Part shown: positions 2,697 to 60,815 of the stretch, piece by piece
Position numbering within the stretch: the stretch's first letter is position 1
How the letters are laid out: the number at the start of each line of letters is the position of its first letter
From: a bacterium
Lineage (GTDB): Bacteria > Patescibacteriota > Minisyncoccia > Phycocordibacterales > UBA2100
Reading direction: 5' to 3'
Length of the DNA: 64,000 bases
Assembly: GCA_016789445.1 (NCBI GenBank)
Contig: JAEUQT010000001.1
Span: 131,603 to 195,602 of the forward strand
Program-made: the position numbers and the translations under genes
The notes under the pieces: model-generated
Seen by the model: the letters and a program-made list of their open reading frames with translations, nothing else
The model's database searches: none
What the model was told of the DNA's origin: nothing

Positions 2697-4487
2697 CTAG
2701 TTTCCTTCGCGCTTTGCCTTTGCTGCTGCGCTTTCGGTGAGATAGATCTTTCGCAGACGTACGCTCTCAGGAGTGACTTCGAGGTATTCATCCTTCTGCA
2801 TGAGCTCCAATCCGCGCTCGATGGAGAGCTCGTATGCCGGGACGAGATTGATGGCATCGTCGGTACCGGACGAACGCACGTTCGTGAGGTTCTTCCCCTT
2901 CGTCGGATTCACGTACATTTCGTCGCCCTTGGAGGTATCGCCGATGACCTGGCCTTCGTACACTTCGGTTCCCGGCGTGATGAAAAGACGGCCGCGATCC
3001 TGGAGATTCCAGAGCGAGAAGCCCAAGGCTTTTCCGGTCGCCATGGAAACCATCGAGCCCTGTGCACGGCGACGGATCTCTCCCGCGAACGGACGGAAGC
3101 CGATGACGCGTGCCGCGATGATACCCTCACCCTTCGTATCGATGATGAACTGGTTGCGGTAACCGAGAAGACCACGGGTCGGACCTTCGAAGATGAGACG
3201 CACCGTCGCTTCGTGGACGAGCATGTTGGTCATCTGGAAACCACGAGTACCGAGCTTTTCGATGACGGCGCCTTGGTATTCAGACGGGATATCGACGACG
3301 ACTTCTTCGAACGGCTCTTTCTTGACGCCCTCCTCTTCCTTCACGATGACCTGCGGCTGTGAGACCTGCATCTCGAAACCTTCACGGCGCATGTTCTCAA
3401 GGAGGATCGCGATATGGAGTTCGCCGCGACCAGAGACCTGGAAATTATCCGGCGACTGGAAGTCGACTTTGAGACCGACGTTGATCTCGAGCTCCTTCTC
3501 AAGGCGATCACGAAGCTGGCGCGAAGTGACGTACTTACCTTCGCGTCCGCCGAACGGAGAATTGTTGACGAGGAAGCTGAGTGTAATCGTCGGCTGATCG
3601 ACGGCGATTGCCGGAAGCGTCTCGACGTTGGCATCAGTCGTGACGGTCTCGCCGATTTCGATATCAGGCACGCCCGCGATGATGCAGATGTCTCCCGGTC
3701 CGACTTCCGTCGCTTCGACACGCTTGAGGCCCGTGAACGTGAACATCTTAGTGATCTTGCCGCTGCGGGTCTCTCCTGTAGGCTTCTTTACGAAGATGCT
3801 GCCGCCGGTCTTCAAAGTACCTTCGTACACGCGGCAGACCGCGAGGCGGCCGAGGAAGTTGTCGTACGCGAGGTTGAACGGCTGTGCGCGAAGTGCGGAA
3901 TCAGCAGACGCATTGGAGGCTACCGGAACCTTCTCAAGGATCATGTCGAGGAGCGGCGTGAGATCCTTGCGTTCATCATCGAGTTTGCGCATCGCGACAC
4001 CTTCGCGGCCGATGGCATACATGACCGGAAACTCTGCCTGCTCATCGGATGCGCCGAGCTCCAAGAAGAGTTCCAAGACCTGATCTTCTGCGCGAGCCGG
4101 ATCTGCGGCCGGCTTGTCGATCTTATTGAGGACGACGATCGGCTTGAGGCCGAGCTCGAGCGACTTCTTCAAGACGAATCGCGTCTGCGGCATCGGGCCT
4201 TCCTGCGCATCGACGACGAGAAGGACGCTGTCGATGGAGCGGAGCACGCGTTCGACCTCGGAACCGAAGTCAGCGTGGCCCGGCGTGTCAACGATGTTGA
4301 TCTTGGTACCCTTGTATTCCACCGAGGCATTCTTGGCGTAGATGGTGATGCCGCGCTCCTGTTCGAGCTTATTGGAGTCCATGGAAACCCCCTCCTCCGC
4401 TGCCCCGGTCTGCTTCAGGATGGCATCGGTAAGGGTCGTCTTCCCGTGGTCGACGTGGGCGATGATGGCGATGTTGCGGATTTCCAT
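2697..4487 (-). CDS. typA: Translational GTPase TypA/BipA
   Basis: G-domain motifs [17 protein letters not shown] and NKIDK with EF-G-like domains. Start trimmed to [18 protein letters not shown] (ATG at 4485-4487). Confidence 0.9.
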
Positions 4488-6210: not shown

Positions 6211-6558
6211 CTACGGTTCTTTGCGGTTATGGATACCGCGCGAGACAAGCTCTTGGTAGAGCGTCGGTCGTGGGTTCCATTGATATGAACGAAGCCGGAC
6301 AGTCTCAGATACGCACATCGGCGTTCCGACTCGAAACACAGCAAGGCCGATGAACAGGACGAAAACCGACAAGATGGAAGAGAACATACTCTGCCACAGC
6401 GAGAGATGTTCGAGAGCCGCTTCAGAGCAGAGCGCCGCCTGCGCGGTCTGCAGCGGACAACCAAAGTGATGATCGGTGTGCGAAAGCAGGACCGGTAGTC
6501 CGAAAGCAGCGACGAAAAGCAGGATCACGATAAGCACTGAGGCAAGCTGTGCTTTCAT
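6211..6558 (-). CDS. Hypothetical membrane protein (His/Cys-containing, possibly metal-related)
   Basis: Two TM helices and a HTDHHFGCP motif, adjacent to the DUF305 gene. Confidence 0.35.
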   Translation of the reverse strand: MKAQLASVLIVILLFVAAFGLPVLLSHTDHHFGCPLQTAQAALCSEAALEHLSLWQSMFSSILSVFVLFIGLAVFRVGTPMCVSETVRLRSYQWNPRPTLYQELVSRGIHNRKEP

Positions 6559-6593
6559 ACCTTCACGATACTCCTCCCTCAGGAAAACGCCAG

Positions 6594-7139
6594 CTAGAAC
6601 CAGCGACGTACTTTCTTCTTATATTCAAGATAGGTCTTCCCGAATTTCTTCTCGAGATACGCCTCCTCGCGCGCAACGACACCGTAGTGGAGGACGAAAT
6701 GCACGAAGACGATCATGCTCAGTATCCAGAGCGAATTGAGCCAGATCGCGAACCCAATGAGGATGAGCGTCATACCGAGATACATCGGATTGCGGCTCAG
6801 TGAATACGGAAGCGCCGTGACGATCGCAGTCGGAATCTTCCGCACATCGATCTCGGTTTTCGCATCAGCAAAGCGCTGCGCCGCCCACGCGATGAGGAAG
6901 ATGCCGAGCGCGATCACCGTGAGCCCGAGCGGCAGATCGTACGACTCAGGGATGAACGGCTTCGGTAAGAACCAATCGAGCACAAACCCGACGACAAGGC
7001 CGAAAAGGAAAATAAAAGGTGGTAATGCGATCACGTTCGGCGAATCAGTAGTGCTTTGCATGATCGTAGGATACGCGTTTGCGCCGCGGCTTTCAAGAAA
7101 GCGAAACGGCGGCTCTGTTGCCGCCGTTTCCATCATCAC
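6594..7139 (-). CDS. Isoprenylcysteine carboxyl methyltransferase (ICMT)/phospholipid methyltransferase family membrane protein
   Basis: C-terminal signature NPMYLG ... EE.YL...FG..Y..Y...V.RW. The true start is probably internal (MQSTTD...). Confidence 0.6.
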   Translation of the reverse strand: MMMETAATEPPFRFLESRGANAYPTIMQSTTDSPNVIALPPFIFLFGLVVGFVLDWFLPKPFIPESYDLPLGLTVIALGIFLIAWAAQRFADAKTEIDVRKIPTAIVTALPYSLSRNPMYLGMTLILIGFAIWLNSLWILSMIVFVHFVLHYGVVAREEAYLEKKFGKTYLEYKKKVRRWF

Positions 7140-16502: not shown

Positions 16503-16629
16503 TAACGGCTCGTGTCTCTACACTTTTGAGCCCGCTCTTGATTTCATCAAAGCGAGCGCGGTCTACCTCCCTGAATTCTAGATTGTGAATTTCCATATTA
16601 CATGCGAGTACGCCAGACAAGGATACTTT

Positions 16630-16748
16630 GGAAACCCTCGGTTTTCCAACGGTCGCCGAAGCGACCTGCCTTCCGACACGGGGAACTCCCGTTCCCCGAC
16701 CCCCTCCCTATCCAAGTCTGGCAACAAATCTCGTTGCACTCAATTTGT
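16630..16748 (+). repeat. Family B tRNA-3'-flank element (GAAACCCTCGGTTT ... CTTCCGACACGG ... GC hairpin ... CCGACCCCCTCCC ... inverted copy of tRNA-Gln 3' end)
   Basis: Shares ordered motifs with 21886-21989. It ends in an 18-bp perfect palindrome formed with the tRNA-Gln 3' end (CCAAGTCTGGCAACAAAT / ATTTGTTGCCAGACTTGG). Confidence 0.6.
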
Positions 16749-21800: not shown

Positions 21801-21885
21801 AATGCGGATATCCTACGCGAAAATGCTGGATTTTCAATCTTACGGTCCGGGATTTCACTGCTCGCCGTATTCTCGGCTGCGCTTT

Positions 21886-21989
21886 CGAAACCCTCGGTTT
21901 CGAATAACTTCCGACACGGAGGGGGTCCGGTGGGTCCCCCTCCGACCCTCCCCCGTTCAATCCCGGTCGGGCCTCTCGCTACGCTCGTG
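21886..21989 (+). repeat. Family B tRNA-3'-flank element (second copy) between the two tRNA-Thr genes
   Basis: Ordered motifs shared with 16630-16748: GAAACCCTCGGTTT, CTTCCGACACGG, GC hairpin GAGGGGGTCC...GGTCCCCCTC, CCGACCCTCCCC, then an inverted copy TTCAATCCCGGTCG of the tRNA-Thr(GGT) T-arm. Confidence 0.55.
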
Positions 21990-24832: not shown

Positions 24833-25666
24833 ATGCTCGGTGTCATCCTGATCGCAGTCGGCGAACTCTTCGCCGAAGCAAGCGCTACGATCGGCCGCTA
24901 CGAAGTGAAGCACCGTAAAGAGACCCTCTATACGATGGGGTTCCTGAGCGGCTTCTGGGCCACGGTCTTCCTCGTCATCTACAGCTTCACGTGGGGAGAA
25001 TTCAGGTTTTCGTACGATAGTCTTCCGACATTCGGAGCGCGACTCGGCCTCGAGATAGCGCTTCTTCTTTTCTCATTGCACGCGATGGTTCAGGCCGATA
25101 GGAGCACGTTCGCGTTCCTGCGCACGTTCACTATCCCCCTGCTTCTTGCGGCAGACCTCGCGCTTGGATACCCGCTTTCCATCAATCAGGTATTCGGTGT
25201 ATCTCTTATCGTCATCGCGCTCCTCATCCTTCTTCTCAATCACGGCCTCAGCCGTCGCGGCAAGCTGCTCTCGCTCATGTCGGCGATCTGCGCGGTAGGG
25301 ACGATCACGCTCTACAAGTACAACATCACGTATTTCAATTCAGTCGAAGCCGAGCAGACATTGATGCACGTGTTCCTGCTGGTTGCGATCGCAGCAGCCG
25401 CAAAGCTTCAGACCGGCGAAGATGTCACCCGTCGCATGTTCAAACCGGTCTTCTTCGCACAATCGCTTCTCGCCGGTGTCGCGACCATGCTCTTCAGTTT
25501 CGCGTTCCTGTTCGCCCCGGCCTCTGTCATCACGGCGGTGAAGCGGTCCTTGGAGATCCTTGGTGCAATCGTCTTCGGTCGCAAGTATTTCCATGAGAAA
25601 CACGTGCTCCTGAAACTGCTCGCCTGTGCGCTCGTTGCGGGAGGGATCGGGCTGATGGTGGTGTAG
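24833..25666 (+). CDS. DMT superfamily (EamA-like) transporter
   Basis: About 10 predicted TM helices arranged as two 5-TM repeats. Confidence 0.5.
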   Translation: MLGVILIAVGELFAEASATIGRYEVKHRKETLYTMGFLSGFWATVFLVIYSFTWGEFRFSYDSLPTFGARLGLEIALLLFSLHAMVQADRSTFAFLRTFTIPLLLAADLALGYPLSINQVFGVSLIVIALLILLLNHGLSRRGKLLSLMSAICAVGTITLYKYNITYFNSVEAEQTLMHVFLLVAIAAAAKLQTGEDVTRRMFKPVFFAQSLLAGVATMLFSFAFLFAPASVITAVKRSLEILGAIVFGRKYFHEKHVLLKLLACALVAGGIGLMVV

Positions 25667-25685
25667 GTTTGAGTGACGGGACTCG

Positions 25686-25902
25686 GTCACAGATATTTCT
25701 TGCGCCGTCGGACAGATTTTTTCGCGACCATAGGCATCGTCTCGGCCAAGAGCTCATTCGTCGCCGTCGCTCCTCATTCCTCTCGGCCCTGATTTTGCGA
25801 CCCCGTCTGCTGACGGGTCCGCCGCAAAATCTTTCGAGTCCCGCCACTCTGCTGAAAAACGCAACAACCCCGACGGCATGCGTCGGGGTTGGCGTTTTGC
25901 GC
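25686..25902 (+). repeat. Family A tRNA-3'-end-associated miniature element, copy 1 (degenerate), at tRNA-Asp
   Basis: Begins GTCACAGATA plus a hairpin. Contains an inverted copy TTCGAGTCCCGCCACTC of the tRNA-Asp T-arm/acceptor and a terminator hairpin CCCCGACGGCATGCGTCGGGG. Flanked by a 15-bp direct repeat GAGTGACGGGACTCG (25671-25685 and 25903-25917) equal to tRNA-Asp nt 56-72. Confidence 0.7.
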
Positions 25903-25973
25903 GAGTGACGGGACTCGAACCCGCAGCCTTTCCCGTGACAGGGGAATGCTCTAACCAATTGAGCTACACCCGC
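25900..25973 (-). tRNA. tRNA-Asp (anticodon GTC)
   Basis: Manual fold: acceptor GCGGGTG/CACTCGC (G4-U69), anticodon stem TTCCC/GGGAA with loop CTGTCAC, T-arm GCGGGTTCGAGTCCCGT, discriminator G. Confidence 0.85.
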
Positions 25974-26088
25974 AAGTGAGGAGTAAAGAGGATGCTAGCA
26001 TACTCTTTCTCCGAGCGCAGCGGGTGTATGAGCTCACGATTACACCCGCATTCAGAGGCGGCTAAGCCGCATGAGCCCGTACAATATA

Positions 26089-26352
26089 TCACTTCCCTCC
26101 CCTTTTCAAACCCTTCTTCCCTAAGAGATGCTTCGCCACATCCATGCCGGAAACCAAGCCCCAGACAGCATTCACCACCATGAACGGCAGCACTCCCGAA
26201 TGGTACGCATACGTAAATAGGCCTATGGATGCGACGAAGTTCAAGAGGTCGTAGGTAAGGCTTTCCGCATCAAGTTTGCTCCACTCATTACCGACAAAGG
26301 CGGTCAGTGTAAGGGCCGCCGAGCCGATACCGATGATGTCTATAAACTCCAT
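26089..26352 (-). CDS. Small membrane protein (87 aa)
   Basis: Three predicted TM helices; hypothetical. Confidence 0.4.
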   Translation of the reverse strand: MEFIDIIGIGSAALTLTAFVGNEWSKLDAESLTYDLLNFVASIGLFTYAYHSGVLPFMVVNAVWGLVSGMDVAKHLLGKKGLKRGGK

Positions 26353-26387
26353 CTCTCTATTCTATCGTAGTGTCGAGGGTGGGGGTC

Positions 26388-26538
26388 GGTCACGAATAAT
26401 TTCTGTCCCGTCGGACAGAAATTTTCGCGACCCCGGCTCGCGGTCTCGCCTGCTGGCGAGACATCGCTCCGCCTTTCGACCCCCACACGCTGTGTGCGCA
26501 GGCACACAGCCCTCGACACAAATCCACTTCGTATATTT
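26388..26538 (+). repeat. Family A element, copy 2 (canonical), at tRNA-Met
   Basis: GTCACGAATAAT; hairpin ATTTCTGTCC-CGTC-GGACAGAAAT; core TTTTCGCGACCCCGGCTCGCG-GTCTCGCC-TGCT-GGCGAGAC-ATCGCTCCGCC. Then an inverted tRNA 3'-half mimic TTCGACCCCCAC[hairpin]CCTCGACAC. Flanked by a 19-bp direct repeat (26369-26387 and 26539-26557) equal to tRNA-Met nt 56-74. Confidence 0.8.
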
Positions 26539-26539
26539 G

Positions 26540-26613
26540 TGTCGAGGGTGGGGGTCGAACCCACGACCTTGGCTTTATGAATGCCACGCTCTAACCAACT
26601 GAGCTACCCCGAC
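26540..26613 (-). tRNA. tRNA-Met (anticodon CAT; elongator Met or lysidine-Ile type)
   Basis: Manual fold: acceptor GTCGGGG/CCTCGAC, anticodon loop TTCATAA, T-arm GTGGGTTCGACCCCCAC. Confidence 0.75.
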
Positions 26614-26723
26614 AAGTGAGGAACAAAATGAGGATATACCATATTCTCATTTTTTCCGAACGCAGTCGGGCGCATGAGCATGCGAGGACCCGACGTCCTG
26701 CCAAACGTATCATTTTAACGTGC

Positions 26724-27143
26724 TTATTTCAACGTTCCTTTTACGCTCTCGAAAAACTCCTTGTCCTTGGGATGCGTGAGTAATTTCGAGACGTCATCGA
26801 TCGGAACCCATCGCGCCTCGGGATTATCAGCATCGGTCGGTGCAAGCGCTTGCTGCAGGGTCTTATAGAGGAACATATGGATACGCTTCAGCTCACTCGT
26901 ATCCTCTCCCTCCCCGCCCTTACCGATCTTGTAGCGCTCGTACGACCCGAGGTCGCGAATGAACGCCAGCTGCGTGACGCCTGATTCTTCGATAATCTCA
27001 CGCTCCGCCGCTTGCTGCGGCGTCTCTCCCGGATCAACATGACCTTTCGGCAGAGACCACGAATCACCGCGCTGACTGACGACGATCACCTCATTGAGCT
27101 GGTTAAGCACGATACCTCCTGCGCTTTCGGTCACGTTCTGCAT
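26724..27143 (-). CDS. NUDIX hydrolase
   Basis: Nudix box GHVDPGETPQQAAEREIIEESG. Start trimmed to MQNVTESAGG (ATG 27141-27143); the listed 240-aa ORF runs on through the repeat/tRNA region and is not credible there. Confidence 0.75.
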   Translation of the reverse strand: MQNVTESAGGIVLNQLNEVIVVSQRGDSWSLPKGHVDPGETPQQAAEREIIEESGVTQLAFIRDLGSYERYKIGKGGEGEDTSELKRIHMFLYKTLQQALAPTDADNPEARWVPIDDVSKLLTHPKDKEFFESVKGTLK

Positions 27144-27164
27144 GGCGGTAGTATGCCATATGTA

Positions 27165-27421
27165 CGCAGGGCGGGCTTGGTCAAGAACATTTCTTGCTTC
27201 CGTCGAAGCAAGAAATTTCTCGGCCCTGATGTTGCGGGGGCGGGCTTGGTCACGGATAATCTTCGCGCCGTCGCGCGAAGATTTCCGCGACCCCGGCTCG
27301 CGGTTTCGCCCACTGGCGAAACATCGCTCCGCCTTGCAAGTCCAGCACGAAAAGCGCACCGGCGCTTTTCTCCCCGCGACTGCACAAACACAAAACCGCC
27401 CGTACGGCGGCTTTGTGTTTG
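27165..27421 (+). repeat. Family A element, copy 3 (canonical) plus a tandem partial unit (27165-27227), at tRNA-fMet
   Basis: Partial unit GGGCGGGCTTGGTCA plus hairpin ATTTCTTGCTTC-CGTC-GAAGCAAGAAAT. Full unit from 27247: GTCACGGATAAT, hairpin ATCTTCGCGC-CGTC-GCGCGAAGAT, core TTTCCGCGACCCCGGCTCGCG-GTTTCGCC-CACT-GGCGAAAC-ATCGCTCCGCC, inverted T-arm mimic TTGCAAGTCCAGC, terminators. Direct repeat TGTTGCGGGGGCGGG (27228-27242 and 27422-27436) equals tRNA-fMet nt 60-75. Confidence 0.8.
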
Positions 27422-27423
27422 CT

Positions 27424-27495
27424 TGTTGCGGGGGCGGGACTTGCACCCGCGACCTCCAGGTTATGAGCCTGGCGAGCTACTACTGCTCCACCCCG
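27424..27495 (-). tRNA. Initiator tRNA-fMet (anticodon CAT)
   Basis: Near-identical to the E. coli tRNA-fMet body (GCGGGGTGGAGCAG ... GCTCATAACC ... GGTCGCGGGTGCAAGTCCCGCCCCCGCAA) with an unpaired 1:72 position (A1/A72), the initiator hallmark. Confidence 0.75.
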
Positions 27496-27539
27496 CTATG
27501 AAGTGCGTAGTATACCTCACGAGGAAGTGTGAGGCAAAT

Positions 27540-44412: not shown

Positions 44413-44435
44413 AATTGCGGAGAGGGAGGGATTCG

Positions 44436-44582
44436 GTCACGGATAATTTTCTGCTGAAAATTTCCGCGACCCCGCCTCGTCGCCTACGCTCCTGCGACTT
44501 TCGAATCCCTCCGTTTCGCTATGCGAAACCGCCACCCTTTCGGGCGGCGCTCTCCGCAAAAAACTTGCGGGTCTCGTTTTTT
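44436..44582 (+). repeat. Family A element, copy 4 (variant), at tRNA-Ser
   Basis: GTCACGGATAAT; hairpin AATTTTC-TGCT-GAAAATT; TTTCCGCGACCCCGCCTCG; covarying hairpin GTCGC...GCGAC. Inverted tRNA-Ser 3'-half mimic TTCGAATCCCTCC[hairpins]CTCTCCGCAA. Flanked by a 21-bp direct repeat TTGCGGAGAGGGAGGGATTCG (44415-44435 and 44583-44603) equal to tRNA-Ser nt 56-76. Confidence 0.8.
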
Positions 44583-44585
44583 TTG

Positions 44586-44674
44586 CGGAGAGGGAGGGAT
44601 TCGAACCCTCGAGACAGTTTGACCCGCCTAACACGTTAGCACCGTGCCGCCTTCGACCACTCGGCCACCTCTCC
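44586..44674 (-). tRNA. tRNA-Ser (anticodon GCT), long variable arm
   Basis: Manual fold: acceptor GGAGAGG/CCTCTCC, anticodon stem GCACG/CGTGT with loop GTGCTAA, extended variable arm, T-arm GAGGGTTCGAATCCCTC. Confidence 0.8.
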
Positions 44675-50982: not shown

Positions 50983-51148
50983 GTCACGGATAATTCAATG
51001 AGTGTCAATATCGAGTCCCCAGGGATAATTTTGTCGCCGTCGCTCCAAAATTTCCCCGGGCCTGGCTCGCGGTCGCGCGTACTCGCGCGACATCGCTCCG
51101 CCTCGGACCAGTAAACAAAAACAGCGCTCAATGCGCTGTTTTTGATTC
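50983..51148 (+). repeat. Family A element, copy 5 (composite/degenerate), at tRNA-Ile
   Basis: GTCACGGATAAT at 50983, then a second GATAAT at 51023 with hairpin ATTTTGTCGC-CGTC-GC..CAAAAT; core TTTCCCCGGGCCTGGCTCGCG-GTCGCGCG-TACT-CGCGCGAC-ATCGCTCCGCC; partial inverted copy of the tRNA-Ile 3' end (CGGACCAG); terminator AAACAGCGCTCAATGCGCTGTTTTT. No clean direct repeat found. Confidence 0.6.
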
Positions 51149-51225
51149 TGGTCCGCCCTCTTGGATTCGAACCAAGGACCGCAAAGGTATAAGCTTTGTG
51201 CTCTAACCAACTGAGCTAAGGGCGG
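51149..51225 (-). tRNA. tRNA-Ile (anticodon TAT), CCA encoded
   Basis: Manual fold: acceptor CCGCCCT/AGGGCGG, anticodon stem CAAAG/CTTTG with loop CTTATAC, T-arm CTTGGTTCGAATCCAAG, discriminator A, then CCA. Confidence 0.7.
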
Positions 51226-56346: not shown

Positions 56347-56730
56347 GGGGATGATTGGCTTCGACAGGGAGATCGATGCATATACATGCATGGCGGAAGT
56401 GGGTATCTTCCCAAAAACACCCAAACTCTAAGTGCAAACAAAACTGCACGGGGGGTTCTCTCGCCTATTCAGGTGAAGGACCTCGGCTTTGCTTTCGCGT
56501 AAGCCAAGGCAACCGTTCGTTCAGAGGTCTCCAATACTCTGATGCGAGCGTCATATCATTGGATACGGCTTCCCTATCACACCGTAGGTTAGTCTAAAGA
56601 AAGAGTGTCCGACGCGAAGCGATCTTGTGCGTTCCATACTCTCCGCGTTCAAAACCTTTGAACGCCCTACGCCTTGTAGATGTGTGTATGCGTTTCTCTT
56701 TGCACCGCGGTTCGATTCCGCGCATCTCCA
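56347..56730 (+). ncRNA. ssrA: tmRNA (ssrA), standard one-piece
   Basis: Directly downstream of smpB. 5' end GGGGATGATTGGCTTCGACAGGG matches the tmRNA 5' consensus. The acceptor stem GGGGATG/CATCTCC has a G3-U wobble (Ala identity). 3' T-arm CGCGGTTCGATTCCGCG plus discriminator A. Candidate tag frame from GCA 56434 to TAA 56500-56502 (...VKDLGFAFA). Terminator hairpin GCAAGCCGCC...GGCGGCTTTTGC at 56739-56766. Confidence 0.8.
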
Positions 56731-56743
56731 CAGCCAATGCAAG

Positions 56744-56912
56744 CCGCCTTCCAGGCGGCTTTTGCATTTGCATTGCGACGGTGGAGATGAAGAAAGCGCC
56801 TGCGCGCTTTCTGCGGGGGTCTCGAAAGGCGGAGCGCTGTTCCGACAGCAGGCGGAACCGCGAGCCGGGGTCGCGGAAATTCAAAGGCGACGGCGTTTGA
56901 ATTATCTGTGAC
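56744..56912 (-). repeat. Family A element, copy 7 (inverted orientation), at tmRNA gene 3' end
   Basis: Reverse complement reads GTCACAGATAAT, hairpin (TTCAAACGCC-GTC-GCCTTTGAA), TTTCCGCGACCCCGGCTCGCG-GTTCCG-CCTGCTGT-CGGAAC-AGCGCTCCGCC, T-arm-like TTTCGAGACCCCCGC, a hairpin, then TCATCTCCAC (copy of the tmRNA 3' acceptor strand). Direct repeat CGATTCCGC (56713-56721 and 56913-56921) equals the tmRNA T-loop from nt 56. Confidence 0.75.
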
Positions 56913-56972
56913 CGATTCCGCCGCCGATATTCCTTCATGCAACCTTATGTGTTTTGATACGTCCACTGAGAT

Positions 56973-58298
56973 ATGCCGAAGCGATACTGGTGGAAGGATG
57001 CGAAGATATACGAGCTCTACGTCGATCGCTTCGCGGGGAATTTCCAGAACCTGACGGCACAATTGGATTACCTGGAGCGTCTTGGCATCAACGCACTCCA
57101 CATCCTCCCCCACTACCCGTCGCCCATGGCCGATGGCGGCTATGACGTGATGGAATATCTCAACGTCCGGCCGGAACTCGGCACGATCGAGGATTTCGAT
57201 ACCTTCCTCAAAGAAGCGCACCGCCGCGATATCAAAGTCATCATCGACTTCGTCCTCAATCACGTCTCAGAACATCATCCTTGGTTCTTGGAGGCGCGAT
57301 CATCGAAAGACAACAACAAGCGCGATTACTTTTTATGGAGCGAGAGCGGACACGAACTCGCCCTCGGTTGGAATGCCTTCCCCGACATCAAGCCTGGCAA
57401 TTGGATATTCAACGAAGAGACGCAGGACTACTACTATGCGACCTTCTATCCGCAGCAGCCGGATCTGAATTGGGACAATCCGGAAGTCTTCGCAAGCATG
57501 ATGCAGAACATGGATTTCTGGGCCGGCCGCGGCGTGGACGGCTTCCGCTTGGACGCAGCGGTGACGCTCATCAAACGAGACGGCACGCTCTCGAAAGGAT
57601 TGCCGGAAACGCACCAGCTCATCAAACGCATCCGCAAACACTTGGACACGAAATTCGGCGGCGAGATCGTCCTTCTTGCTGAAGCGCATCAGCACGTCAA
57701 AGAGATGAAGACGTATTTCGGGGACGGCGACGAATGCCATCTCGTGTACCATTTCTCACTCACCGAGCAGCTCTTCCTCGCTCTTATGCGCAATGATCGC
57801 ACCGAACTCGATGCGATGCTTGAGGAATCACGCGACATCCCGGAGAACTGCCAGTGGGCGATCTTTCTGCGCAATCACGACGAACTCTCGCTCGCGACAC
57901 TCGCCCCTGAAGTACGCACCGAGCTCATCACCTATCTTGATCCGAAGAGCGAATATCTTTTCAATGGCGGCGCAGCGACCGCCAAGAGGTTGGGCAGCAT
58001 GTTCGACGAAGCGAAGCTGCGCGAAGCGATTTCTCTCCTCTACTCGCTTCCGGGGGCGCCTATCATGTACTACGGCGACGAGATCGGCATGCAGAATCTT
58101 CCACGTACGGAAGGCGTGATCGACAGCCGCGTGTACGTCCGCGGTGAATTCGATTGGCTTGAGGCCGGGCTGCAGCGCAGTGATCCTGATTCCCTCTACA
58201 ACTTCACGAAGGGTGTCATCCGTAAATCACTCTGGCCATATAAGCGGGATTTCAATTCACCTCCCCCAGAAGAGGGATCGCCAAGCGACGACGAGTAG
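56973..58298 (+). CDS. GH13 alpha-amylase family protein (trehalose synthase/amylosucrase-like)
   Basis: GH13 motifs: DFVLNHVS (region I), GVDGFRLDAA (region II, catalytic Asp), EAHQ (region III Glu), FLRNHDE (region IV). The N-terminus WKDAKIYELYVDRFAG resembles TreS. Confidence 0.7.
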   Translation: MPKRYWWKDAKIYELYVDRFAGNFQNLTAQLDYLERLGINALHILPHYPSPMADGGYDVMEYLNVRPELGTIEDFDTFLKEAHRRDIKVIIDFVLNHVSEHHPWFLEARSSKDNNKRDYFLWSESGHELALGWNAFPDIKPGNWIFNEETQDYYYATFYPQQPDLNWDNPEVFASMMQNMDFWAGRGVDGFRLDAAVTLIKRDGTLSKGLPETHQLIKRIRKHLDTKFGGEIVLLAEAHQHVKEMKTYFGDGDECHLVYHFSLTEQLFLALMRNDRTELDAMLEESRDIPENCQWAIFLRNHDELSLATLAPEVRTELITYLDPKSEYLFNGGAATAKRLGSMFDEAKLREAISLLYSLPGAPIMYYGDEIGMQNLPRTEGVIDSRVYVRGEFDWLEAGLQRSDPDSLYNFTKGVIRKSLWPYKRDFNSPPPEEGSPSDDE

Positions 58299-59556
58299 TC
58301 TCACCTTTGAAGAGTTGCCGCGTCCGCTCCGGCATGTCTCCTCGCTCGCCAAGATGCGCGCCGAATTTCATCGCCTGGAAACTCGAACCGAGGAAGACTG
58401 CGTGTTTACCGTATCGTTCCGATATCGCATCCACGCTCTCGAACACCATCTTCAATCCTTGGGATTCTTCCACTTTGCCGAAAAGATCGAGCTGAAGACT
58501 GTCCGCGGGGCGCAGCTGCGCGAGGGTCACGCCGCTCGCACGATACAGCTTCCCGTTCTCGAAAACCTGCGGGAAGAATTTAGCGACCTCGCGCAGGACA
58601 TCCTGCGGGACATTCGTGGGGTGCGGGAGCTTCACTTCGATACCGTGGTATCTGAAATCCTGTGTCTTGAGAAAGAAGAACACGCGATCACTCGCGAGAT
58701 TCCATCGGCGCGCCTTGATGCACGCATTCTCGACATTTTTGGAGAGCTGACTGAAGATAAACTTCGCATCGCGCAATGGTGGCGTGAAGGTCTTGGTCTT
58801 CTGGATGCTCTGGTAGCTGGTCTTCTTTTCCGTCGTGAGTGGATAGATGGCTTCGCCATTGAGCTCCCGCCAGATCTCCTGCACCGGCTTCGAAACTTTC
58901 GCACGCACCCATGGTTCGTTCTTGCGCGCAAAATCGAGCGCGCTCTGAATACCGAACTTATTGAGATACGCCGCAGTGTTTGGCCCGATCCCCCATACAT
59001 TCCCTACCGGCAGCTTTCCGAGAAATTTTGATGCGTCGCTGAGCGGTATCGAGGTGAGACCATCAGGCTTCTTCCATTTCGAACCGACCTTCGCCAGGAC
59101 TTTCGTCGCCGAGAGACCCACACTGAACGTGATGCCGAGCTTCACCTGCAGCTCCTGCTTAATGGAATGCGCCATGTCGTGGTAGTTCATCCGATTCACG
59201 CGGCGCATACCGGTGAGGTCCGCGAAGCATTCATCAATGGAATACTCCTCGACGGCAGGCGTGTAGCGACGCACGATCTCGTACATACGCTCTGAATATA
59301 GACTGTAGGTCTCGTAATCCGACGGCAGCACGATCGCATCTGGGCACGCTTCAAGAGCTTCGCTTAATTTGACCCCGCGCTTCACGCCGCGACGCTTCGC
59401 CTCGTAGGTGCACGCAGAGACGATGCCGCGCTCTTTGCCGGTGATGACCGGCTTACCGCGCAGCTTTGGATTCTTTGCCACTTCGACTGCAGCAAAGAAA
59501 GAGTCACCATCCACGTGCAGGATGGCTCTGGGATACGAGTATGACTTACCCCACAT
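58252..59556 (-). CDS. dinB: DNA polymerase IV (Y-family translesion polymerase DinB)
   Basis: ILHVDGDSFFAAVE palm motif, Y-family fingers and little-finger regions; 434 aa. Confidence 0.85.
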   Translation of the reverse strand: MWGKSYSYPRAILHVDGDSFFAAVEVAKNPKLRGKPVITGKERGIVSACTYEAKRRGVKRGVKLSEALEACPDAIVLPSDYETYSLYSERMYEIVRRYTPAVEEYSIDECFADLTGMRRVNRMNYHDMAHSIKQELQVKLGITFSVGLSATKVLAKVGSKWKKPDGLTSIPLSDASKFLGKLPVGNVWGIGPNTAAYLNKFGIQSALDFARKNEPWVRAKVSKPVQEIWRELNGEAIYPLTTEKKTSYQSIQKTKTFTPPLRDAKFIFSQLSKNVENACIKARRWNLASDRVFFFLKTQDFRYHGIEVKLPHPTNVPQDVLREVAKFFPQVFENGKLYRASGVTLAQLRPADSLQLDLFGKVEESQGLKMVFESVDAISERYGKHAVFLGSSFQAMKFGAHLGERGDMPERTRQLFKGETTRRRLAIPLLGEVN

Positions 59557-59576
59557 AGGCCATGTACGTCCGGACT

Positions 59577-59645
59577 GTCACGGATAATTTTCTGCTGAAA
59601 ATTTCCGCAACCCCGCCTCGACACCTAAAGTGTCTCCGGCCTTGC
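59577..59645 (+). repeat. Family A element, copy 6 (orphan partial copy, no adjacent tRNA)
   Basis: GTCACGGATAATTTTCTGCTGAAAATTTCCGCAACCCCGCCTCGACACCTAAAGTGTC, nearly identical to the first 60 nt of copy 4. Lies in the intergenic gap between the dinB start and the mazF-like gene. Confidence 0.65.
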
Positions 59646-59682
59646 GAAGCTCCATGTATTCGCTTCTCACCCCAGACCATAG

Positions 59683-60168
59683 CTACCTGAACTTAAGCGT
59701 GTAGGCTGGCTTGAATGCAGGAAGTGGTGCGTACCGCGAAGTGCGTGGTAGCGGCGTCCGCATGCGTGATGGCCGGATCTGTTTCGCAGGCTTTACCGGA
59801 TTCGTCTCGGCAAGAAATTCCATGACCGCGAGATTCACCGTAGCGAATTGCCGATCACTGATGCGACCGAGACGACGGATAAGCTGGTCCTTCCGCAGCA
59901 TGCGCATCTGCGAAAGGGTTCCGGTGCGGTTCGCACCCTTGAGTGACGTAAGAAAATAAAACGGGGTTTCCTTACCGCTCGCACGCGACGTAAGCGGCAA
60001 TCCCCAGAACGTATCGGTACCGAGCGTACGGAACACCAAGACCGGCCTCTCAGCTGCAGCGTCGGTTGCCGAAGGCACCGAACACCACCAGATATCCTGC
60101 GCACGATATTTCACTTCTCGTACGCGCGCTGTCTTCTTCGAAAAAATGTGGGAAAGCTGTTTAAACAT
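59683..60168 (-). CDS. PemK/MazF-like toxin domain protein (putative mRNA interferase) with C-terminal Pro/Arg-rich extension
   Basis: Pattern D.WW ... ERPVLVFRT ... GLPLTS ... typical of the PemK/MazF fold; longer than canonical at 161 aa. Confidence 0.45.
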   Translation of the reverse strand: MFKQLSHIFSKKTARVREVKYRAQDIWWCSVPSATDAAAERPVLVFRTLGTDTFWGLPLTSRASGKETPFYFLTSLKGANRTGTLSQMRMLRKDQLIRRLGRISDRQFATVNLAVMEFLAETNPVKPAKQIRPSRMRTPLPRTSRYAPLPAFKPAYTLKFR

Positions 60169-60187
60169 ATGCTGGTTGGTTCCGCTA

Positions 60188-60760
60188 CTAATACTTCCGT
60201 ACGACGCCCGTGACTACTGCTTCGACTTTGAACGATTCTGTCGGATAAATGTTGCTGAACTTCTCATTCGCCGGCTCCAGATAATGATTCCCCTTCTTGT
60301 CCTGTCTCAGGTATTTCATGGTGTACTCGCCGTCGACCATCGCGATCACGATCTGCCCGACCTTGTACGTGTTGCGACGCTCGACGACTACCATGTCTCC
60401 CGGACGGATCCCCGCATCGATCATGGATTCGCCTTTTACTTTCAAGATGTAACTCGATTCCTTATTCGGCGTCAGGAACTCGTCGAAATCCATCGTATCG
60501 AGCAGCTCCTCCTCCGCTGCCGACGGAAAGCCCGCTTCGACTAAGCCAAGGAGAGGGACACCTCCTCCGAAATTTCCGGGAGAAAGACGGCCCTGTCGGT
60601 CTTTGACGACCACACCCTCGTCGACAAGTTTTTCGATGAGCTTGAACACAGCGTTCTTGGATCTAAAACCCGTGAAGACCATGATCTCCTTGTAGCCCGG
60701 GAAACGCCCATGCTTCTCATAAAACGCGACCAACTTCTGTTTATAGTGCTCATACGTCAT
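60188..60760 (-). CDS. lexA: LexA repressor (S24 peptidase)
   Basis: N-terminal wHTH; C-terminal S24 domain with Ser (GESM) and Lys (KVGQIVIAMVDGEYTMKYL). Start set at MTYEHYKQ (60760) so the SOS box lies upstream; the alternative start at 60808 would overlap the box. Confidence 0.8.
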   Translation of the reverse strand: MTYEHYKQKLVAFYEKHGRFPGYKEIMVFTGFRSKNAVFKLIEKLVDEGVVVKDRQGRLSPGNFGGGVPLLGLVEAGFPSAAEEELLDTMDFDEFLTPNKESSYILKVKGESMIDAGIRPGDMVVVERRNTYKVGQIVIAMVDGEYTMKYLRQDKKGNHYLEPANEKFSNIYPTESFKVEAVVTGVVRKY

Positions 60761-60799
60761 ACATGTTTTCCCTAGTAATTCCTTATGGAGTTCAGTGTA

Positions 60800-60815
60800 G
60801 TGAACCATGGTTCAC
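60800..60815. promoter_or_regulatory. Putative LexA operator (Cheo-box-like GTGAAC-N4-GTTCAC perfect palindrome)
   Basis: GTGAACCATGGTTCAC lies 40-55 nt upstream of the proposed lexA start; it matches the Gram-positive-type SOS box core GAAC-N4-GTTC. Confidence 0.55.

Follow-up and report, generated by a model that had tools for sequence, protein, structure and literature searches.

The tRNA-Met locus and the repeats beside five RNA genes

The window analysed here is the whole stretch of 64,000 nucleotides (nt) from contig JAEUQT010000001.1 of a patescibacterial genome (GCA_016789445.1), in which ARAGORN and Rfam locate eight tRNA genes, all on the minus strand, and one transfer-messenger RNA (tmRNA) gene on the plus strand. 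Our subject is a short structured element that follows several of these genes, described first at tRNA-Met. In the orientation of the host gene, its parts are ordered as the gene with its 3' segment X(a), a spacer or terminator, an antisense segment b1-hp0-b2, 2-4 linker nt, P2, GG(G), P3 ending in GUGAC, and X(c), a second copy of the gene segment. The parts at tRNA-Met are as follows.

26539-26613, minus strand: host gene tRNA-Met (CAU), found by ARAGORN and by Rfam with 65.2 bits
26539-26557, minus strand: X(a), the last 19 nt of tRNA-Met from T-loop C56 to the 3' end, read from the sequence
26520-26538, minus strand: spacer AAAUAUACGAAGUGGAUUU, loop of the X(a)/b hairpin
26510-26519, minus strand: b1, GUGUCGAGGG, antisense to tRNA nt 65/66-74
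26487-26509, minus strand: hp0, conserved hairpin with a CUGC loop, splitting the antisense segment 9-10 nt from the junction
26475-26486, minus strand: b2 plus 2 nt, GUGGGGGUCG-AA
26435-26473, minus strand: P2, with a covarying GNC/GNC stem, a GGA/GAG internal loop (tandem G.A) and hairpin hp2 (alignment, RNAalifold)
26389-26434, minus strand: P3, GGGGUCGCGAAAA-hp1-UUAUUCGUGAC, long hairpin in which one A is bulged, forming the element's right end
26370-26388, minus strand: X(c), displaced second copy of tRNA-Met from nt 56 to the 3' end, then the original downstream flank

At this site GUGGGGGUCG is antisense to tRNA nt 56-65 and its AA is antisense to T54 and T55, which precede the junction. 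The covariance model of the core matches 26389-26476 with 104.7 bits.

The arrangement recurs at five RNA genes of the window, where ...UUAUYYGUGAC is found 150-230 nt 3' of the gene in host orientation and is followed directly by a second copy of the host RNA from C56.

25671-25685 and 25903-25917: tRNA-Asp repeat, 15 nt
26370-26388 and 26539-26557: tRNA-Met repeat, 19 nt
27230-27244 and 27424-27438: tRNA-fMet repeat, a 15-mer, then CTTG past a 1-nt deletion
44415-44435 and 44583-44603: tRNA-Ser repeat, 21 nt
56713-56721 and 56913-56921: tmRNA repeat, 9 nt

In all five the copy starts at T-loop C56, in the context GGTT|CGA or, in tRNA-fMet, GGTG|CAA. An earlier note on this DNA, made by a model from the letters alone, had reported five direct repeats abutting a conserved element end, GTGAC, and contiguous with it. 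The sequence bears this out in host-RNA orientation, as X(c) directly follows GTGAC in every case. Its coordinates were exact for tRNA-Asp, tRNA-Ser and tmRNA, but the first range for tRNA-Met was 1 nt low and both ranges for tRNA-fMet were 2 nt low. What it missed was an antisense segment inside the element that tracks the junction in every case, as well as copies after tRNA-Ile (51019-51110) and a mazF-like gene (59577-59678) and two relics (27169-27226 and 50983-50999).

The same note argued that these junctions are not due to chance, and we agree. A 9-nt match in fixed register has a chance probability of ~4e-6 per copy, and the covariance model finds 7 copies in the 64-kb window with E values from 2e-23 to 4e-5, plus relics; all copies it finds are on the same strand as the adjoining host gene. 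The P3 pattern at 2 mismatches gives 8 matches, compared with an expectation of 2.4 from shuffled sequence. A chance resemblance or an error of assembly might be considered, since the related sequences come from metagenome assemblies, but with covariance-model E values to 1e-23, the excess of pattern matches and the same architecture in at least 120 independent assemblies from different projects, we assign this explanation a negligible probability.

Antisense segment and junction rule

A scan with the exact P3 pattern, using one genome per species, returned at least 120 loci, and L-numbers below denote these and related loci. Each copy holds a third, inverted copy of its host segment, termed b, which is split by hp0 9-10 nt from the junction; its complementarity to the uninterrupted target runs from -2 to +9..+19. 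b2 is followed by 2 nt that pair with host positions -1 and -2 in 32 and 34 of 39 cases, -3 being left unpaired, and that covary with these host positions (TT/AA, GA/TC, TC/GA, GT/AC, GG/CC). Pairing with the element's own AC instead is possible in just 1-2 of the 39. Where X(a) is clear, the host has G at -3 in 39/40 contexts and C at +1 in 37/40, and the element's own end, G-A-C|C, follows the same G-N-N|C rule. The b/c inverted repeat differs at every site, and the X repeats are gene-specific and 9-65 nt long. Two mutually exclusive pairings are possible, a/b and b/c.

The identical 55|56 register that the earlier note emphasised holds in the window and is the commonest elsewhere, but other genomes have 54|55 (L004), 53|54 (L101), a large second class with junctions ~3 nt short of the tRNA 3' end, and junctions at codon positions within protein-coding genes. 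The T loop is not the determinant that it was proposed to be, as one and the same core is also joined to other positions in tRNAs and to the ends of topA, rplL and mazF-like genes. GTTC targeting of the IS91 kind was rejected for a similar reason, since it fits the T loop only and other targets show at best GNNC.

The copies extend into the genomic trailer, by 8 nt in L042 and 11 nt in L011, and never carry CCA; thus they derive from DNA or a primary transcript and not from mature tRNA. This excludes copying primed by mature tRNA, one form of the primer or template-switch copying that had been suggested as a mechanism, and also tRNA-primed reverse transcription with b as a counterpart of a primer-binding site, as b and c follow the trailer at the window tRNA-Met as well. 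An H/ACA-like or RNase P external-guide role for the split antisense segment was also discarded, as no unpaired target nucleotide is left, the split lies a fixed 9-10 nt from the junction at any target, and protein genes are targeted.

Conserved fold and its strand

The core is a three-way junction of P2 and P3 on the host-gene strand, supported by covariation. In P2, a GNC/GNC stem of 3 bp is followed by a GGA/GAG loop, which has tandem G.A, and by a hairpin that varies, and P3 is a long hairpin with a single bulged A in which the terminal GUGAC pairs with an internal GUCGC. In an alignment of 46 cores analysed with RNAalifold, compensatory changes occur in 20 of 30 predicted pairs, and one pair in P2 is GC in 19 cores, CG in 14, AU in 11 and UA in 2, with none broken. 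In 103/103 cores the fold of the host-sense strand is more stable than that of the complement, and at positions not fixed by the pattern the host strand has 59 G.U pairs vs 30 on the complement. From these two results we assign the structured strand to the host-gene strand. Kissing of the hp0 CUGC loop with GCAG in the hp2 or hp1 loops was considered and rejected, as it is not maintained, e.g., in the tRNA-fMet copies of the window and L127.

An intrinsic terminator is predicted between the tRNA and b at tRNA-Asp and tRNA-fMet, a similar hairpin is found at tmRNA and tRNA-Ile, and a terminator hairpin precedes b in most copies examined. No internal promoter is predicted in the element. Rfam at gathering thresholds finds only the tRNAs and the tmRNA in the window, and a scan of 25600-27500 with Rfam 15 at E<=10 gave no credible match on the element. 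The HDV, hammerhead, twister, pistol and hatchet models gave no match, and the core is set apart from the tRNA by the terminator. The bulged A 8 nt before the end and the terminal AC prompted a comparison with group II introns (domain V/VI), whose class C inserts after terminators; the resemblance was rejected as P2 has neither the domain V triad nor the bulge geometry, the element is shorter than 330 nt, and Rfam reports no intron above noise.

Insertion, replacement and layering

The syntenic fMet-NUDIX-Met-CBU_0592-Asp region was taken from relatives whose NUDIX protein is 79-88% identical. At the tRNA-Met site of L125, an identical tRNA is followed directly by AAACGACTTGTACATC... and there is no element; the covariance model gives no match at all in L125. 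L127 and L128 instead read tRNA, spacer, b, core, X(c) and then AAACGACTCGTACATC..., and the flank after (c) in L127 equals the flank after the tRNA in L125, which identifies (c) with its flank as the original gene end. The spacer AAAUAUACGAAGUGGAUUU is specific to the element, being absent from the empty site and present in L127 and L128, and L129 retains this spacer and part of (c) alone, i.e., a deletion remnant. A model in which the element inserted downstream of a host terminator and b and c were copied locally, taken from the inverted tRNA-fMet of L124, was rejected in view of this clean filled/empty pair and of terminator sequences that differ between cassettes. Compared with the window, L125 and L127, the segment of L124 containing tRNA-fMet and its terminator (locus coordinates ~2870-2950) is flipped with respect to its flanking genes, and no element is present there.

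The tRNA-fMet site is likewise empty in L125 and occupied by a copy of the family in L127 and L128. In L129 and L121, the same X(a) and an orthologous (c)-plus-relic enclose another core (family 2, as opposed to family 1 described so far), which comes with another terminator. L126 carries in series family 2, the P3 of the window's family-1 copy and the old relic, each followed by a copy of X. Layering is seen elsewhere too, as two full units stand in tandem at the tmRNA of L036, in L094 a T-loop unit precedes an older one that is intact and joined to the tRNA 3' end, and elements are nested in L054 and L061. In the clearest of these arrays, the newer unit is next to the gene.

Protein genes give a further view of the same process. 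A displaced C-terminal coding piece is still readable after GTGAC at five topA genes and one rplL gene; that of topA starts right after GUGAC and reads ...KTIPERCS.K.CPNHNPHK... The working and displaced topA ends differ by 38 synonymous and 8 non-synonymous codons at four loci, and by 6 and 4, respectively, in L007. Since these differences are mostly synonymous, the two copies have diverged as functional genes in different lineages, one of them being element-borne. The site-specific insertion with duplication of the host 3' end that the earlier note proposed is thus supported by filled and empty sites in relatives, displaced readable topA C-termini and tandem layering. The comparisons show inserted cassettes that have been gained, lost, exchanged and stacked, and we regard it as highly probable that the elements are mobile insertions that replace gene ends.

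A vertically inherited cis-acting RNA in the 3' trailer, serving in processing, termination or as a switch with b alternating between (a) and (c), would not need to be mobile. It would account for the location on the same strand immediately 3' of the host RNA, for the mutually exclusive a/b and b/c pairings, for a structure kept across phyla, and for a family-1 or family-2 module at 8 of the 9 RNA genes of the window. It fails, however, on the displaced coding-like topA and rplL ends with their mostly synonymous divergence, on empty sites beside identical tRNAs, on the swap of cassette families and on tandem and nested arrays; moreover, terminators lie upstream of the core and (c) has decayed in many copies. 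We find such an RNA quite unlikely.

The shape of junctions and relics also bears on a retroelement origin. The right junction is precise and the imported gene-end tract at the left varies in length, and relics often retain the 3' part only (P3 and X), L061 keeping P2-P3 and L126 just P3. This is what would be expected of a non-autonomous retroelement of the R2/SIDE or SINE type that is co-transcribed with the host gene, anneals through its 3' X to a nicked target and is copied by target-primed reverse transcription, the upstream host sequence in the transcript restoring the gene. The constant location on the host-gene strand and an RNA-like fold with G.U and tandem G.A pairs would fit as well. 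On the other hand, the core is separated from the host RNA by strong intrinsic terminators, no promoter is predicted inside the element, no reverse transcriptase is found near any copy among the matches listed, the copies contain genomic trailer and not CCA, and the end points of relics vary (L061 vs L126), which ordinary deletion explains equally well. A retroelement therefore seems improbable to us.

Two observations on tRNA-Met concern another register. In L121, L124 and L126, the complete gene is followed after only 8 nt by part of another tRNA-Met copy, which starts at the anticodon stem and reaches the 3' end, and the T-arm of the syntenic tRNA-Met varies among close relatives. Together, they suggest another replacement of the 3' half, with its register in the anticodon loop.

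Distribution and neighbourhood

The loci of the pattern scan are nearly all from Patescibacteria (Saccharibacteria, Paceibacteria and Parcubacteria groups), plus Elusimicrobia, and the covariance model finds 173 copies in the pattern loci and related loci. Among the matches listed, to which the following counts refer, 78 of the 124 copies are preceded at a distance of 46-380 nt by a tRNA or tmRNA gene on their own strand, with 20 types represented. Three further copies follow tmRNAs detected by Rfam alone, and five sit in the coding ends of topA genes and one in that of rplL; the mazF-like copy of the window adds to the protein genes. The distance from X(a) to X(c) is 91-330 nt wherever X(a) can be found, none of these intervals contains cargo, and no distant X(a) copies marking large elements were found. 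The elements measure about 110-330 bp, and no open reading frame (ORF) fits inside. Clustering of the ORFs within 4 kb of the 124 copies yielded housekeeping genes only, e.g., SmpB, FtsH, IF-2 and RuvA, no neighbour being conserved, and a scan of IMG/VR gave no match.

Given these numbers, the integrase-like attB targeting that had been offered as one explanation is unlikely in its classical form of an integrase island, with a cargo or recombinase gene in 0/124 copies. As for the recombinase elsewhere that it was suggested to look for, none was found among 20 ORFs of the window; XerD-like genes occur in the sampled DNA. A more refined version would take the elements as attL/attR scars, or CIME-like derivatives without integrase, of tyrosine-integrase islands or prophages, with P3 and b as leftovers of attP arms. 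T-loop-to-3'-end repeats, a displaced fragment, a replacement end and newest-proximal arrays are all seen here, and the XerD-like genes also count in favour of this version. Such repeats and arrays are reportedly classic for integrase-mediated integration, following the sublocation classes that Williams is said to have defined in 2002. However, the interval from X(a) to X(c) never exceeds 330 nt, there is no integrase nearby, no conserved neighbour and no IMG/VR match, and one core is found at 20 or more tRNA types plus tmRNA, topA, rplL and mazF, too many for a single sequence-specific integrase. What is conserved is base-paired structure with compensatory changes and not protein-binding repeats, and the antisense segment tracks each target including -1/-2. 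Integrase scars are therefore an explanation to which we give little weight.

Two other sequences were noted near copies of the family. L036 has a match to the Rfam LOOT RNA (6513-6628, 72.7 bits) a few kb from the tandem element pair at its tmRNA, and GCAATCGGRGCGTAC...AAGCCACCACGCACGCGGAGCGTGCGAAGT is conserved upstream of elements in L058 (~3900-4000) and L059 (1-80), which are from different genomes, and may be a structured repeat.

Proposed mechanism and enzyme

We think it rather probable that the family consists of miniature insertion elements, site-specific and non-autonomous, which supply a new gene end, find their target through the antisense segment they carry and are mobilised by an unlinked enzyme. 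X(a) is the element-borne replacement of the gene 3' segment, keeping the tRNA, tmRNA or protein intact, X(c) is the displaced original, and b, antisense to the uninterrupted target, would be the address. The element would act as one folded host-sense strand, either DNA (the lagging-strand template for co-oriented genes) or read-through RNA, in which P2, P3 and hp0 form a constant scaffold for a trans-acting enzyme. Pairing of b with the target, X(a) or X(c) may place a break after G-N-N and before C, with helices on either side. At the left end and the target, the 2 nt 5' of the break would pair with the dinucleotide after b2, and at the right end they would pair inside P3. Cuts at both ends would free X(a)...P3 and reseal the gene, joining at a naive allele would recreate the X duplication, and the only insertions to survive would be those whose carried gene end fits the interrupted gene. 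Of the 7 window copies, 6 have the lagging-strand template as their structured strand, an assignment based on a plus-strand GC skew of -0.033 and on the location of most genes on the minus strand.

For the enzyme, our preference is a single-strand transposase of the HUH/Y1 type, like those of IS200/IS605 or REP/RAYT, a choice made by analogy and with low confidence. A recombinase acting on folded single-stranded DNA (attC/CTX-like) or an RNA-guided one (IS110-like) is a possible alternative.

Several points weigh against the proposed mechanism. None of the 20 ORFs of the window encodes a transposase, integrase or reverse transcriptase, and tblastn found no TnpA match in 0.95 Mb from ~125 genomes, a search of low power that used an IS608 TnpA query and covered ~1% of each genome. 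Empty sites could be secondary losses through recombination between the X repeats, so that de novo insertion is inferred and not observed, and no excised form or circle junction was seen. The copies were ascertained by a strict P3 pattern that fixes part of the P3 stem, including its G.U; the tRNA-Ile copy, which falls outside this pattern, keeps the same G.U position with compensated flanks. Sequence cannot decide between RNA and single-stranded DNA, a general point also found in PMC5737381. Many copies no longer keep the pairing between b2 and (c) in full, and the strand test on the P1 pairs by themselves is only weakly asymmetric, with 28 G.U vs 17 A.C, which makes the role of this pairing uncertain. 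Finally, the proposal gives no explanation for the origin of a new address, i.e., of b together with X(a).

On balance, we judge the chances to be even that b is a functional address. That the family is a new class of programmable DNA insertion system, with a ~150-nt folded strand, an address of 11-21 nt (b1-hp0-b2 and 2 nt), a constant three-way-junction scaffold and an unlinked enzyme that would cut after G-N-N and insert the element wherever the address matches, is a more tentative idea, which we consider less likely than not.

Other copies in the window

The tRNA-fMet copy resembles that at tRNA-Met and is followed by an older relic. This P3 relic and X(c2) are common to the relatives L121, L126 and L129. 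The initiator-type tRNA-Met itself (27425-27497) has an unusual T loop, UGCAAGU, with G at 55, instead of UUCRAAU.

27249-27443, minus strand: tRNA-fMet copy, covariance model 104.1 bits
27421-27443, minus strand: X(a)
27385-27420, minus strand: terminator
27372-27380, minus strand: b1
27347-27371, minus strand: hp0
27335-27346, minus strand: b2
27295-27333, minus strand: P2
27249-27294, minus strand: P3
27169-27248, minus strand: trailing stretch, 19.1 bits, with X(c1) at 27227-27248, a degenerate older P3 relic at 27180-27226 and X(c2) at 27169-27179

The tRNA-Asp copy is composite, with a degenerate second core nested between b and P3, of which L124 and L129 have better-preserved versions.

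25671-25917, minus strand: tRNA-Asp copy, covariance model 28.7 bits for 25745-25834
25899-25917, minus strand: X(a)
25855-25898, minus strand: terminator
25833-25849, minus strand: b
25730-25832, minus strand: nested degenerate core
25686-25729, minus strand: P3
25671-25685, minus strand: X(c)

The tRNA-Ser copy is of a short type, and the tmRNA copy is the one on the plus strand.

44415-44603, minus strand: tRNA-Ser copy, covariance model 46.7 bits
44583-44603, minus strand: X(a)
44558-44582, minus strand: spacer
44550-44557, minus strand: b1
44513-44549, minus strand: two hairpins
44500-44512, minus strand: b2
44474-44498, minus strand: P2
44436-44473, minus strand: P3
44415-44435, minus strand: X(c)
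56713-56921, plus strand: tmRNA copy, covariance model 97.1 bits
56713-56732, plus strand: X(a)
56733-56775, plus strand: terminator
56780-56789, plus strand: b1
56790-56812, plus strand: hp0
56813-56826, plus strand: b2
56828-56866, plus strand: P2
56867-56912, plus strand: P3
56913-56921, plus strand: X(c)

The copy at tRNA-Ile is attached at the tRNA 3' end and not at the T loop. This tRNA (51149-51225) has the anticodon UAU, which is uncommon for tRNA-Ile in bacteria.

50983-51157, minus strand: tRNA-Ile copy, covariance model 91.9 bits
51147-51157, minus strand: tRNA end
51111-51146, minus strand: terminator
51101-51110, minus strand: b
51064-51100, minus strand: P2
51019-51063, minus strand: variant P3
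50983-50999, minus strand: older half-P3 relic

A mazF-like toxin gene on the minus strand (59683-60168) has the last copy at its 3' end. This MazF/PemK-like toxin is encoded in a cluster (58252-60808) together with a DinB-type polymerase and an S24 (LexA-like) peptidase, and the element stands between the toxin gene and dinB.

59577-59678, minus strand: copy at the mazF-like gene, covariance model 50.5 bits
59640-59678, minus strand: hp0 variant
59615-59639, minus strand: P2
59577-59614, minus strand: P3

At 59640-59678 and in L051, L054, L063 and L067, a variant left module, GGGUGAGAAGCGAAUACUUGGAGCUUCGCAAGG, replaces b1-hp0-b2, and these copies are not attached to tRNAs. Copies in Elusimicrobia have GGUGAGGCCCGGC...GUCCGGGCCGCAAGG in the same place.

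Family 2 has an unrelated-looking core (GGGGGUCGG-hairpin-CCGUGUCGGAAGG...GGAAAACCGAGGGUUUCC), which is found in the window after tRNA-Gln (16608-16746) and after tRNA-Thr GGU (~21839-21988), and also in L061, L121, L126 and L129; at tRNA-fMet of close relatives it replaces family 1. Its logic is that of family 1, the core being preceded by the tRNA 3' end in antisense and followed by the same end in sense orientation.

Relation to known systems

Integration at gene 3' ends with replacement, a preference for tRNA and tmRNA genes and proximal stacking are the behaviour of known integrative elements. Nevertheless, the family departs in defining features from each family considered, i.e., integrase islands, IS200/IS605/PATE, REP/RAYT, IS110, MITEs, attC, group II introns and the families in Rfam. 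Tyrosine-integrase islands and CIMEs share with it the insertion in the 3' part of a gene, the replacement end, the displaced direct repeat, the T-loop and 3'-end registers, newest-proximal tandem arrays and targeting of tmRNA. Unlike them, the elements described here are 110-330 bp long, with an integrase or cargo in 0/124 copies. One structured core serves more than 20 targets, compared with one lineage per attB in the islands, and the elements hold a junction-spanning antisense segment and conserve base pairing in place of arm-type repeats.

IS200/IS605 (including PATE) and REP/REPIN-RAYT elements are strand-specific, have hairpins at their ends and choose the site of cleavage or the target by internal guide pairing. 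They also give rise to small derivatives mobilised in trans and occupy gene-distal positions; precise excision is a trait of theirs. The combination of subterminal hairpins and a guide known from these elements is found here in hp0 and the P3 hairpin and in b with its 2 nt, which span the left junction. The differences are that known guides measure 4 nt and read the flank 5' of the cut, whereas here 11-21 nt are read, mostly 3' of it. The known elements make no target duplication, use a fixed target-adjacent motif of 4-5 nt and do not replace gene ends, while the present family has gene-specific repeats of 9-65 nt and only G at -3 and C at +1 in common between targets. Its core has no sequence match to known ends or to omega RNAs (Rfam was negative), and no TnpB or Y1 transposase was found for the element in the DNA sampled.

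The bridge RNA or seekRNA of IS110/IS1111 is also a structured strand with bipartite programmable segments flanking a hairpin, directs highly site-specific insertion and has a pairing that passes the exchange point by 2 nt. Its guides, however, are 4-9 nt long and read both DNA strands, and the element contains a gene for a DEDD recombinase. Here b1 and b2 together read a continuous stretch of one strand, the fold has one three-way junction and no evident donor-binding loop, no recombinase is linked, and the 3' segment of the target is duplicated.

Integron attC sites and IMEX of the CTX type resemble the family in having a folded single strand with a bulged base, a variable distal hairpin and structure-based recognition, as well as arrays with the newest unit proximal and an enzyme in trans. 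They differ in that the present exchange point is GNN|C after GUGAC, without GTTRRRY or a dif site, and in the many gene-end targets, the three-way junction and the target-specific antisense arm. An IntI gene was not seen in the sampled DNA, and no genome-wide search for IntI was made. Miniature inverted-repeat transposable elements (MITEs) such as Correia and ERIC are likewise short, structured, non-autonomous, multicopy and intergenic or gene-distal, and may act as terminators. Their terminal inverted repeats are fixed and their duplication is fixed and short, in contrast to the target-derived b and c and the duplication of 9-65 nt seen here.

No prior description of the family was found in the literature searched, and a self-carried, junction-spanning address on a ~150-nt scaffold is apparently undescribed there.

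Significance

On a cautious reading, these repeats still form a very widespread family, with no entry in Rfam and no mention in that literature. If b is a working address, the family would represent natural guide-directed insertion with a tiny nucleic-acid part and a separable enzyme, of an interest akin to that of bridge RNAs and OMEGA systems. The unlinked enzyme would then possibly be common to many Patescibacteria and Elusimicrobia, and retargeting would amount to a new address plus a matching gene end. For annotation, partial tRNA copies and pseudo C-termini would be read as footprints of these elements, which could also serve as a tractable marker of horizontal exchange in uncultured lineages. 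If true, the proposed mechanism would account for the structured repeats and gene fragments that the tiny genomes of candidate-phyla bacteria contain after tRNA and tmRNA genes and after some essential genes for proteins.

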